Position numbers: made by a program. Below are positions 1 through 3,000 of a stretch of 38,484 bases of DNA, in pieces (position 1 is the first letter of the stretch; every line of letters begins with the position of its first letter). The stretch comes from a virus (Duplodnaviria; Heunggongvirae; Uroviricota; Caudoviricetes): IMG/VR virus record IMGVR_UViG_2718218100_000014; one strand, given 5' to 3'.

Positions 1-3000
1 CTAAATTTTACTTAATACCACACTAATAAGATCTTGCTTTCCGCCATGATAAGATTGCATTATTTGACTTTCACTCCATGAACGGTCGGAAACATTATAA
101 GATGATATATCTATTGGATTAAACTCATTCTTCGCGCGGTCATATAAGACATTTGTCTCTGTTGTATCGACAAAAAGAATTCCTTTTTGCTCCAGTCTAT
201 CAAACATATCGTAAATAGCATGCTCAGCCTGTGCTGGCAAGGACGAAATATTTAAAAGCGATTCTCCATTTATTTTATCCATTCTAATACCAATAATATC
301 ACCATTATTGCCATATATTTTTTCTGCACTCCCGGCACCATAATATTGGTTGAAGCAACGAACTTCGCTTGTCACCTCTTCATTGCTTTGAGATGTAGTA
401 AACATCTTCAGGACTTTTGTTGCATCCTCAGCATCTTCATATACTACAGCGTTCCCCCCTTTGCCAATAACATTACCAGGTACTGACAACCTGTTATAGT
501 CCACACTCGGTAACTCTGGCGGTGCATAATCAACAGGAGGTAAATCAGGTCTGTTCGAATGAACAATGCCTCTTTCCATAGCAGCGCTCACTGGTGATGC
601 ATTCAGCATGACCTCAATTTTCCTGCTAATCTCCCCCTTAGGCCATCCCAGCCTGTGCAACAGATTAGTAAAACAACCACTATGACTTTCTCTTGTAACG
701 CAAAACTTATTATCGGTGGCAACAACACGATATGTTCTGTTGCCAACCTTTACTTGCGCCCCATTATCAGAATGAACGGCAGCATCCCTTACAGAGGATA
801 AAACACGATTATCAGGCGAAGTCAGGTTTCTGGTTAAAGAATTCCATGAACATCCCAAATTTACAGAATATGGCGATAACATACATTTCAACCTTCAAAA
901 TAAACCCATCTAAATTTCCTTAACAAACATCCCCCTAACATGGCAACAAAAATTAGAAATGAACTCTTGCTTTTTGTATCTGGCAACTAATTCATCCTTC
1001 CAGCATCCCATCAAACGAACGTTTACGAACTATAACGCAGGTATTACCGGTCACTCGATATCTGGAGATACAGACGTATCAACATGATTGAGCGGCATAC
1101 GATACTGCTTCCATGCCGCCAGTAACGATGTCTGCTCATCCGTCGCAATATCTAAATCTGCAGCATCCTGAAGTGGTGCGATATACTCACTGATTACAAG
1201 TACCAGACCGATAGATTAAAAAAAACACAATAACACGCTGCATTTAAAACAAAAAATTTTAAATATGATTTAATACAAGCTTTAAGCCTTTAATTATCAG
1301 TTTTATTTATTTTCCAGCAATTGATTAATCAATTGTTTATATACAAATTATTCCTTTTCTTTCTCTCACGCAAAATTCACAAAATATTGTTGCTGCAATG
1401 GACCTGTACAATAGTGAATCACGGTACTTTTCTGTGCACAACGTACTGCAGTTTCTTTACGATTTATAGCTGTACTGTTGAATTATGTACAATTTGAATC
1501 CATGCATGACGTGTGATGCCTATTGTGCATTTTTCCGAGCCTCTTTTTACTGGGCCGAAGCCGATGATGCTGATAGTCTCGTTCCGGCCATGTTCACTTA
1601 CTACAGTAAAATTAGGGGAATTGCCTTTACATACAATGTTGCACGATTACCCATCATCAACTCCGTTAAAATGTATGAATAGTAACCTTATGTCACTGCA
1701 AAGACGAATCATTGCTGATTGTGTTTGTCCACATCCCCAAATGTAAAAATATAAGGGGCGCCATGATACAGTTGGATCTGATTTGCATCCTGTAAATTAT
1801 CGTTGATAGCCAATCCAGGAAAATCATGTTGCTGGATAAATCCGTATCCTATGTTAGACACAGCGGAATACTCTGTGAAATCAGGACTCGCCTCATATCG
1901 GTCACTGATCGTACCCAGCCTTTCGAAGAAAGCCCTCTCATTCTCTTCATGCCTCATGGCAGCCTGTCGAAGGGCATTCAGGTTACGTAGCCTAAGATGA
2001 GCTTCACGTTCTGGCTCTGCATATCCTTTGAAGTCGGGAACACTCCATCCCAGTTCTTGAGCGACACGACGTGCGAGAATCTCGGTGGGTCCTAACTCTA
2101 TATTACTATCTCCAGATGGATCGCTAGATCCAGTAACATGATGAATAATCTCGTGAATCAGTCCTTCCTGCCACGATGGCATCTCATAAGAGTCAGTATC
2201 TGGCGCAACACTAAAACTGACATAAGGCTCTTCGTTATCGTTTTCTCCTGCTTCGCAAATGGGGAAAATTGGCTCTTGCCCGACATCATATTCATATAAT
2301 TCGTTACAGGTTAGTGATTGAATATCATCAATTTTGACAGAAGATTCTTCGTTAAGCTCGTATTCGTTTCTGTATTTAATGCAACCAATGTGTACCTTCT
2401 CATTATGAATGCCATAGCTTACGGCATCACGAAATGTCTGTGATCGGCTCAAAGCATCAAGTACAGTGTTGCCGATCATATCGACTGTATGCTGATCGAT
2501 AAGCCTGCTACGGCTGTCATGGACGGCGCGTATTACACTTTCGTATACGTTGCTTAAATCTGCTGCGGAAAGTGGTATTCGCTTACCTATATCCAAAACG
2601 TAATCCGCATAGGCATTTTCAGCACGATTAGGAGCAATGGGAGCAGAGTATCCTGCCGGGGCGGAAAAGTTGAAGTTGGACTGTAATGAGGGAATTTTCA
2701 TGTTTATATCTAATACCCTGCAAATCATTTATTACAACAAAATAAACTATATCAAATTCATTTACCATGAACTGCATGTATACTGACTTGTGTTCATGAT
2801 TATATTAGGGTGGTTAAACTCAATAAAGTCACAAAAATGATTATAATTATGTAATGGTGTAAAATTAAAATATTTCTTAACTCCTTTCCCCAAACCATCA
2901 TAATATGGATGAGCATCTACTTTACTATGCATAAAAGAAAGTCCCTCAAGTAGAGCAGGATGATTACTACGGTTAACAATTATTGCACTATTTTCAATAT

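Follow-up and report, generated by a model that had tools for sequence, protein, structure and literature searches.

In the effector locus of this prophage, the minus strand at 1030-1209 carries a remnant of a lambda-type tail fiber assembly gene (tfa), corresponding to about residues 136-194 of a 194-amino-acid Tfa. Judging from comparisons of sequence, this is very probably a dead 3' piece of tfa, a fossil that dates from an earlier fusion of two phage right arms and is now drifting neutrally. (Positions are those of the window, which is the whole stretch of 38,484 nucleotides that we analyzed, IMG/VR record IMGVR_UViG_2718218100_000014.) The effector locus as a whole would then be made up of two or more stacked phage right-arm ends rather than a single insertion. 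This reading is based on the remnant, a duplicated operon-end element, a captured piece of ykgJ, and a relative in which the arrangement is intact.

The prophage is of the Sp3/CP-933K type and lies at the lambda att site (bio-ybhB). The order of the locus is stf, chaperone, nleB2, nleC, tfa remnant, nleH1-1, nleD, lambda att core, and ybhB. nleH1-1 (1-882, minus strand, with only its stop codon lost to the window start) encodes a type III secretion system (T3SS) effector kinase (OspG_kinase). nleC (1709-2728) and nleB2 (2762-3742), both on the minus strand, form an effector block between two late-operon ends. The T3SS effectors are thus placed after the fiber genes and beside att, as in the effector loci of lambdoid prophages, which reportedly lie between the tail fiber genes and att. 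A general statement that lambdoid prophage effectors are found there is also available (PMC3530523). The att core is a perfect lambda core, present in one copy beside ybhB, and no further core was found anywhere in the window with up to two mismatches allowed. So, no internal hybrid att backs a tandem integration of two prophages at one att site, and we rejected that scenario.

The identity of the remnant is clear from several searches. The minus-strand translation of 1000-1260 gives the Tfa C-terminal residues that were first quoted in the earlier note, which had called for a protein search against Tfa families. Such a search is significant with both collections: Pfam's Caudo_TAP (PF02413) matches with E = 5.9e-16 (59.2 bits, above the gathering score of 22.1), and PHROG families for tail fiber assembly match at E = 2e-14 and better. 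The Caudo_TAP match covers only profile positions 80-125 of 131, so the domain is incomplete, and the remnant falls short of complete Caudo_TAP proteins, which have about 175-195 amino acids. When a 194-amino-acid lambda-type Tfa was compared to the window with tblastn, only residues 136-191 aligned (1206-1039, E = 1e-19), and the N-terminal part had no match anywhere in the 38 kb. These results bear out the claim of a Tfa C-terminus with no N-terminal part. Over residues 136-191, identity to the lambda-type Tfa is about 68% for amino acids and 75% for nucleotides. We did not find an intact tfa of exactly this allele; the nearest full-length proteins share about 70% identity with it over the block. 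(A word-indexed protein search with a 54-amino-acid query returned only two near-identical entries of 53 amino acids, and the full-length relatives were visible only by exhaustive search of representative proteins.) The conserved tfa 3' block is also the C-terminal end of many unrelated proteins.

The GC content of the remnant stands out from its flanks, as had been noticed: it is 46.3% at 1030-1206, versus 35.4% at 883-1029, 28.4% at 1207-1484, and 50.8% across the phage backbone. The remnant is oriented like the fiber operon. It is separated from the fiber genes by nleB2, nleC, the ykgJ fragment, and AT-rich DNA (about 2.7 kb), and no cognate fiber gene adjoins it.

The span first proposed for the fragment, 1051-1210, lies within the remnant, but the homology runs from about 1030 to 1209. 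The frame appears to end in a conserved C-terminus, PDIE*, but this end is a nonsense mutation: the TGA at 1051-1053 (minus strand) replaces the conserved Trp codon of the DIEWP motif in alignments to full-length Tfa proteins. Nearly all Tfa proteins run on as DIEWPxxP, and the C-terminal ends of representative proteins almost all have W-P at this point. The aligned codon is still TGG in a plasmid copy (L004), in the second copy of phage 2B8, and in locus L024. Beyond the TGA, homology continues as PVIPAL to a TAG at 1030-1032 (minus strand), seven codons further on. This is the ancestral tfa stop, as intact homologs end in EWPTMPAL* or EWPVIPEL* at the aligned TAG. At the other end, the homology probably starts about five codons before SEY, at LVLVI, in agreement with the limit at 1206 in public annotation. 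There is indeed an in-frame stop upstream (TAA at 1216-1218, minus strand), but it lies 24 nt before the Ser codon of SEY, not about 15 nt. Ahead of the internal Met in YRMPL, the frame contains no ATG, GTG, or TTG.

Public annotation has already recognized the decay. In O157:H7 and O55:H7 genomes, RefSeq/PGAP marks 1051-1206 as a pseudogene ("tail fiber assembly protein, incomplete, missing N-terminus"), and identical DNA (100%) is present in hundreds of RefSeq genomes. As the pseudogene is already marked, the remnant is ordinary; what we add is that the Trp codon has become a nonsense codon, that the remnant in fact extends over 1030-1209, and that the joint is old. Older records (P0001) show a 53-amino-acid "tail fiber assembly protein" here, which begins at an ATC codon and should not be counted as a gene.

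The pattern of substitutions does not suggest purifying selection on a protein. The ratio of nonsynonymous to synonymous changes in the remnant is 9:1 against L015 and 4:0 against 2B8 (both small counts), and the copies in 2B8 and L019 have an additional TAG. For the adjacent nleH, dN/dS is 0.14-0.29. To judge from its sequence, the remnant is dead and non-coding, with no functional product, because about 135 N-terminal codons and the start are missing, the Trp codon is a nonsense codon, and most substitutions change the amino acid. One comparison fits less well with long neutral drift: the divergence of the remnant from L015 is 6.5%, which is below the synonymous divergence of nleH (dS of 0.155), on small counts. 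Mosaic recombination could explain this.

Could the remnant instead encode an RNA? The Rfam family IS009 (RF02111) matches 1070-1246 on the minus strand over the whole model, with E of about 1e-16, so a small-RNA gene deserves mention. We consider this highly improbable because, at 76.4 bits, the match falls short of the gathering score of 117, good alignment is confined to the tfa coding homology while the 60 model positions at the 5' end align poorly, and the family's own locus in K-12 is inside the coding sequence of tfaD. IS009 matches in prophages reflect tfa coding homology. Studies of EHEC left out IS009 matches as lying within genes (PMC5331693).

The 5' end of the remnant is a joint. 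At 1207-1437, the truncated tfa is fused to orphan DNA with 28% GC, for which we found no homologs elsewhere in E. coli. This is followed at 1438-1598 (plus strand) by a 5' fragment of ykgJ, a core chromosomal gene that has been captured and is now a pseudogene (PGAP: "YkgJ family..., missing C-terminus", at 1485-1598). The ykgJ genes of about 5000 E. coli genomes are 85-88% identical to this fragment. Thus, the description of the fragment as surrounded by effector DNA is only partly right: it does sit among T3SS effector genes, but on its 5' side there are about 230 nt of orphan AT-rich DNA and then the ykgJ fragment.

The joint is common to all nleH1-1-type copies. The same truncation (GLVLVI followed by AT-rich DNA) is found in copies that have diverged by about 3-7% of nucleotides over the fragment, with blocks of up to about 11%. 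The AT-rich side is held in common up to 1302 in L012, 1405 in 2B8 and L019, and 1573 in L015, and the upstream partners differ: espM2 in phage 2B8 and L019, an IS3-family element in L012, and an effector of the IpaB_EvcA family in L015. As diverged copies have the same joint with different upstream partners, the joint is older than its present neighbors.

The age of the joint bears on the origin of the fragment. The earlier note took it to be phage backbone and a scar marking the point where effector DNA was inserted. If so, the prophage once had its own stf-tfa-nleH, the nleB2-nleC DNA was inserted in situ into tfa, and the 5' end of the fragment is the insertion point. It is true that the remnant is collinear with the 3' end of a tfa and the region that follows it. 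Also, the prophage occupies the lambda att site, where the lambda core is perfect, and since lambda carries stf-tfa, a lambda-type parent for the att-proximal part is plausible. Nevertheless, insertion in situ seems very unlikely because the joint is found in diverged copies with other partners; because the boundary of the nleB2-nleC block is at about 1573-1636, not at 1206/1207; and because the DNA at the joint is the AT-rich orphan and the ykgJ fragment, with no effector DNA. Furthermore, the resident fiber module is of the 434 type and includes a chaperone and a terminator of its own. So, the fragment does come from phage backbone and is a recombination scar, but it probably does not mark the entry of effector DNA into this prophage's own tfa.

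The resident fiber module consists of the side tail fiber gene stf (4190-5512) and a gene for an 89-amino-acid protein with the Phage_fiber_C domain of Pfam (3919-4188), both on the minus strand, and it has its own operon end at 3837-3913. In phage 434 (OL657226), the first gene is annotated as "side tail fiber" and the second as "tail fiber assembly chaperone." This fiber system has no Caudo_TAP gene, either here or in any of the relatives in which we examined it. Phage 434 resembles the window in stf, the chaperone, the terminator, an nleB-like gene, nleC, the 3' end of nleH, and nleD (95-100% identity), but it has a 1.47-kb deletion (168-1635 in the window) that takes out the remnant, the ykgJ fragment, and most of nleH.

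A relative shows what the tfa end may have looked like before the fusion. In L024 (IMGVR_UViG_2713896908_000013), the order is lom, stf, full-length tfa, hairpin, a conserved 30-mer, and nleG. The tfa 3' end, the PAL* terminus, the hairpin, and the 30-mer are collinear with 919-1200 of the window, and a T3SS effector gene follows. The differences are that in L024, tfa is full-length (193 amino acids) and directly follows a lambda-type stf of 918 amino acids, the effector is NleG instead of NleH, and the hairpin is perfect. This layout is an intact arrangement of the ancestral type.

We propose that the ancestor would have had lom, stf, a full-length tfa, a terminator-like hairpin, the conserved 30-mer, and a T3SS effector gene. 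The 3' end of tfa, with its downstream region and nleH (and with nleD and the lambda attR beyond), would then have been joined to unrelated AT-rich DNA with a ykgJ fragment, presumably by illegitimate recombination. The composite now stands behind a complete right arm of the phage 434 type (stf, the 89-amino-acid chaperone, the terminator with the 30-mer, nleB2, and nleC). We infer this order of events, and the identity of the two parental phages, from a handful of loci.

The region downstream of the remnant supports the same history. At 883-1029 (minus strand), the natural downstream region of tfa is also the upstream region of nleH1-1, and it contains a decayed hairpin (about 945-971) and the conserved 30-mer (919-948). 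Thus, nleH travels with the natural downstream region of a tail fiber operon. A paralogous end-of-late-operon element is at 3837-3913 (minus strand), 3' of the resident chaperone gene and upstream of nleB2. It includes a hairpin with a T-run (about 3875-3904) and the 30-mer (3850-3879), and it maps to a feature annotated "terminator" in phage 434. The two elements form a direct repeat of 77 nt (906-982 and 3837-3913). The 30-mer occurs twice in the window (zero occurrences are expected by chance), and all 35 of its occurrences in IMG/VR follow, at a distance of 43-110 nt from the 3' end, either stfC (17 cases) or tfa, whole or as a remnant (18 cases). By folding, the hairpin at 3875-3904 is strong (-25.8 kcal/mol, z = -3.5), and the one at 945-971, which is strong in other copies, is weak in this one (z = -0.6); a simple terminator scan flagged neither. 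(We also considered whether a remnant of the 89-amino-acid chaperone gene might lie between the tfa stop and the hairpin, but the similarity starts only at the stop codon, so we dropped this idea.)

The duplicated element may have a known counterpart. NRIR, a conserved sequence that includes an inverted repeat of 13 bp, reportedly lies upstream of nleH1 and nleB2, and our hairpin/30-mer element is upstream of exactly nleH1-1 and nleB2. This is a likeness of position, and in the nleH1-1 copy the inverted repeat is decayed. We regard the identity of the two as a lead. A review confirms an nle regulatory inverted repeat upstream of nleB2 (PMC7142665).

Another possibility is that the remnant is kept because it is useful, either as tfa 3' homology for the swapping of effector cassettes or as part of the regulatory region or 5' transcript upstream of nleH1-1, or both; the DNA at 1054-1206 might, for example, affect how nleH is transcribed or how stable its mRNA is. 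Remnants of tfa or fiber-gene 3' ends do recur in effector loci: 2B8, L019, L029, L036, and L037 have two each, and L019 has a fragment of stfC before nleG. Identity also breaks in a mosaic fashion inside the tfa 3' block (at about 1064 against L004; 72% versus 86-93% in L003), and the block's role as the end of many unrelated proteins would suit such exchange. Finally, 883-1053 is 98.8% identical to L015, compared to 93.5% for nleH. We had considered this conservation of the leader as a sign of constraint, but while it holds against L015 and 2B8, it is reversed against L003, where the leader is less conserved than nleH, so mosaic recombination is the more likely cause. Usefulness seems improbable for other reasons as well. 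Many nleH loci do not have the remnant; in 10 IMG/VR loci, nleH comes directly after the 89-amino-acid chaperone gene without any piece of tfa, and what nleH1-2 loci have in common with the window is limited to 860-952. In a second class of nleH loci, the remnant is shorter (Tfa residues 153-186) and one nucleotide has been lost at the Trp codon, and truncation points and alleles of tfa vary between lineages. Recombination that starts in the remnant is putative. Given a viable phage 434 and nleH loci that are without it, the remnant appears to be dispensable. Under the reading that we favor, a dead fossil of a fusion, it probably persists merely because it adjoins the conserved upstream region of nleH and deletions have not yet removed it.

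A broader proposal, which we offer tentatively and think is more likely wrong than right, is that the lambdoid late operon ends in a portable junction (the 3' end of tfa or the chaperone gene, the terminator-like inverted repeat, and the invariant 30-mer) at which T3SS effector cassettes are stacked or swapped between phages with different fiber systems. NRIR, on which expression of nleH1 and nleB2 reportedly depends, would then be an exapted late-operon terminator, and the remnants would be footprints of recurrent, semi-specific exchange instead of random debris. Literature searches that linked nleH to tail fiber assembly, and exchangeable effector loci to tail fibers, returned nothing relevant.

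Orphan ends of tfa and stf also occur in the invertible segments of Mu, P1, and e14, so the remnant might have been the alternative fiber or chaperone end of a Gin/Cin/Pin-type segment. This has almost no chance of being correct: no invertase gene is annotated within 6 kb, no inverted repeats flank the remnant, and the remnant has the orientation of the fiber operon and a nonsense mutation. The absence of a recombinase and of crossover sites refutes a segment like the G of Mu, the C of P1, or the P of e14.

In itself the fragment is of little import; few prophage regions of E. coli O157:H7 have been studied better than the one in which it lies. Relative to a lambda-type Tfa, the remnant lacks residues 1-135 (the variable part), has a premature stop, and has neither an adjoining fiber gene nor coding constraint. 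E. coli K-12 has similar pieces. In the cryptic lambdoid prophage DLP12, tfaX (b0563), at the att-proximal end, is an orphan piece of tfa that covers about residues 132-191 and contains an internal stop, and in tfaD (b0561), the 3' part of a tfa is fused to a fragment of a terminase gene. They differ from our remnant in allele and in neighbors, and K-12 does not have T3SS effectors; tfaX stands just before the morons appY and ompT.

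Over its first 5 kb, the window matches many E. coli O157:H7 chromosomes at 100% identity. In the annotation of E. coli MB9-1, this region is the right arm of a lambdoid prophage, which we take to be of the Sp3/CP-933K type, adjoining ybhB and bioA. The annotated minus-strand genes are gpJ (6236–9649), lom (5566–6165), the side tail fibre gene stf (4190–5512), a gene for an 89-aa Phage_fiber_C protein (3919–4188), nleB2 (2762–3742), nleC (1709–2728) and nleH1-1 (1–882). A fragment of ykgJ (1485–1598) lies on the plus strand, opposite to its neighbours, and the fragment of a tail fibre assembly gene (tfa) lies between it and nleH1-1, on the minus strand. 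Past nleH1-1 and outside the window are an IS fragment, nleD and a perfect lambda att core; the prophage integrase gene (37714–38484, plus strand) is at the opposite end of the window from nleH1-1. (The integrase gene adjoins an IS3-family insertion sequence with rve and HTH_21 domains at 36207–37420, minus strand. Also, PGAP calls gpJ of MB9-1, at L001 12236–15649, a pseudogene with an internal stop, whereas at window 6236–9649 it is an unbroken ORF of 1137 aa.)

The minus-strand translation of the tfa remnant is exactly as quoted in the earlier note, and a 54-aa stretch of it matches the Pfam family Caudo_TAP (E = 5.9e-16; 59.2 bits, threshold 22.1), in agreement with the PHROG tail-fibre-assembly families. 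The earlier note took it for an orphan Tfa C-terminus with no N-terminal part. Indeed, the Caudo_TAP match is confined to profile positions 80–125 of 131, and a tblastn search of the 38-kb window with a 194-aa lambda-type Tfa found residues 136–191 only, which are the remnant, with no N-terminal part elsewhere. An exhaustive phmmer search with the remnant gave 627 cluster representatives at E up to 0.001, and nearly all of the best 150 of these match at or near their C-terminal end. The proposed island of normal GC is likewise present, at 46% between flanks of 35% and 28% (the phage backbone has 51%). The remnant is already known, as it was annotated before at the same coordinates: PGAP gives 'tail fiber assembly protein; incomplete; missing N-terminus' at 1051–1206, and older records give a 53-aa protein with ATC as its start codon.

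The apparent end of the remnant's frame looks natural, but full-length Tfa proteins run on past it as ...PDIEWPxxPxxx. The Trp codon is TGA in the remnant (1051–1053), followed by PVIPAL and then by TAG at 1030–1032; at the aligned position, intact homologues end in EWPTMPAL* (the IMG/VR contig L024, IMGVR_UViG_2713896908_000013) or EWPVIPEL* (the plasmid copy L004). The stop is therefore a nonsense mutation, and the remnant extends from about 1030 to about 1209. There is no in-frame ATG, GTG or TTG upstream of its internal Met, and an in-frame TAA lies upstream at 1216–1218. Relative to two diverged copies, nonsynonymous and synonymous changes stand at 9:1 (L015) and at 4:0, plus a new TAG (phage 2B8). 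The neighbouring nleH has a dN/dS of 0.14–0.29. Given the TGA at the Trp codon, the missing start codon, the upstream TAA and the mostly nonsynonymous changes, the remnant is, judged by its sequence, a pseudogene in decay rather than a small gene.

Two other readings can be set aside. First, the remnant matches the Rfam RNA family IS009 (E about 1e-16), but the 76 bits are below the family threshold of 117, and the alignment is good over the tfa-coding part only. The K-12 IS009 locus (RF02111; L021 7857–8055, in DLP12) itself lies inside the tfaD coding sequence, so prophage matches to IS009 come from homology to the coding sequence of tfa and do not mark a separate RNA gene. EHEC studies dropped their IS009 matches on the ground that these fall inside genes (PMC5331693). 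Second, an invertible segment would call for an invertase and flanking inverted repeats, and we found neither around the remnant. A direct precedent for the remnant is tfaX of K-12 DLP12, which is also an orphan, stop-containing piece of tfa (about residues 132–191) and lies just ahead of the morons appY and ompT.

The resident fibre module of the prophage consists of stf and the 89-aa Phage_fiber_C protein. (At 4434–4729, minus strand, stf encodes collagen-like Gly-X-Y repeats with a GC content of up to 68%, and the side tail fibre has an internal Phage_fiber_C domain that resembles the downstream 89-aa protein.) The curated genome of phage 434 matches window 3760–4400 at 95.6% and labels this stretch 'side tail fiber', 'tail fiber assembly chaperone' and then 'terminator'. 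The right arm of phage 434 is like that of the prophage, with 95% identity over window 1636–6300 and 100% over window 1–167, except that a 1.47-kb deletion of window 168–1635 takes out the tfa remnant. Phage 434 is a classic viable laboratory phage, and its sequence (OL657226.1) was deposited as a complete genome. As it is complete without window 168–1635, the tfa remnant is dispensable. (Its T3SS effector genes, within OL657226.1 17255–24896, are nleC, an nleD-like gene and fragments of nleB and nleH.)

The end of the late operon is duplicated in the window. Positions 906–982, upstream of nleH1-1, and 3837–3913, upstream of nleB2, are direct repeats of 77 nt with 70% identity. The copy after the chaperone gene folds into a strong hairpin with a T-run (−25.8 kcal/mol, z = −3.5), and in the copy after the tfa remnant the hairpin has decayed. 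The plasmid copy has a strong fold, and in the aligned L024 sequence a T-run comes after a perfect 10-bp inverted repeat. Both window copies contain an invariant 30-mer, TGTTGYCATGTNNNGGNGATRTTTGTTARG, which occurs in the window only at 919–948 and 3850–3879 (0 expected by chance). In IMG/VR we found it 35 times on 31 contigs, and in every case a late gene has its 3' end 43–110 nt upstream. This gene was the 89-aa chaperone gene (stfC) in 17 cases and a tfa gene or remnant in 18 (one full-length, three with residues 108–191, four with residues 136–191 and ten with residues 153–186). The 30-mer is followed by nleH in 24 of the 35 cases, always 66 nt away; in four cases nleB2 follows, at 137 nt, and in seven there is other sequence.

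In ten IMG/VR loci, nleH directly follows the chaperone gene, with no tfa remnant. Since nleH thus occurs in nature with no such remnant, we consider the remnant to be without function as DNA too; that it contributes to the regulation of nleH, or serves as a patch of homology for recombination, seems quite improbable. The nle regulatory inverted repeat (NRIR) was reportedly defined by Garcia-Angulo et al. in 2012 on nleH1 and nleB2, the same two genes that the duplicated element precedes. A review places the NRIR in the regulatory region of nleB2 and describes it as common to a subset of nle genes (PMC7142665). As a lead, the hairpin of the duplicated element might be the NRIR, in which case a regulatory repeat would coincide with what phage annotators call a late-operon terminator.

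The same truncated tfa, with the residues GLVLVI at the junction and the same AT-rich DNA on the other side, is present in several other loci. Phage 2B8 and strain 2015C-4136CT1 are homologous to the window as far as 1405, after which comes espM2 or a trcA-like gene; in another locus (L012), an IS3-family element takes over at 1302; and in L015, a block with about 11% divergence reaches 1573 and is followed by an IpaB_EvcA-family effector gene. As the joint is shared with different upstream partners, it is older than the present nleB2–nleC association. The boundary of the nleB2–nleC block lies at about 1573–1636, and phage 434 shows likewise. The idea that the remnant is a scar marking the insertion point is partly right in kind (it is a recombination fossil of phage backbone) and wrong in detail, as the joint is old, inherited and outside the resident fibre module. 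Nor is the remnant enclosed by effector DNA: on its 5' side are about 230 nt of AT-rich orphan DNA without homologues elsewhere and then the ykgJ fragment.

A 5' fragment of ykgJ, a core chromosomal gene, can be followed over window 1438–1598 (plus strand) inside the effector locus. Compared with ykgJ in about 5000 E. coli genomes it is only 85–88% identical, which suggests that it was captured from a different species through imprecise excision. (A similar ykgJ piece, at L018 2977–3070, lies after nleF in the effector locus of another prophage, at its att-proximal end.) In a second nleH lineage (O103:H2 and others), the tfa allele is different and shorter (residues 153–186); it has lost 1 nt at the Trp codon and is fused to a truncated nleC.

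An intact relative is found in L024, which has lom, a 918-aa lambda-type stf, a 193-aa full-length Caudo_TAP gene, a perfect hairpin, the 30-mer and nleG, in this order. The 3' end of its tfa, together with the sequence downstream, is collinear with window ~919–1200, and L024 shows the ancestral-type layout intact. We infer the following order of events. The remnant and 883–1029 would be the end of a second late operon, that of a phage which had a lambda-type stf–tfa fibre system and carried nleH after the terminator. The 5' part of this operon would have been lost where it was joined long ago, by an illegitimate event, to AT-rich DNA and the captured ykgJ piece. The composite would now follow the whole right arm of a 434-type phage, itself with nleB2–nleC after its own terminator.

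Several database proteins (P0005, P0010 and P0025) end in the conserved Tfa C-terminal block and have unrelated N-termini, and example N-terminal pieces of such proteins match window 25555–25848 and 17411–17593. These proteins suggest that the tfa 3' block is a frequent recombination joint or else a source of chimeric ORF calls. Phage 2B8 (L002 7606–7857) and strain 2015C-4136CT1 (L019 6626–6877) have a further tfa remnant, upstream of espM2 or the trcA-like gene, which is better preserved: it covers residues 108–191, with 90% identity to lambda-type Tfa and an intact Trp codon. In 2015C-4136CT1, a fragment of the 89-aa chaperone gene lies ahead of nleG.
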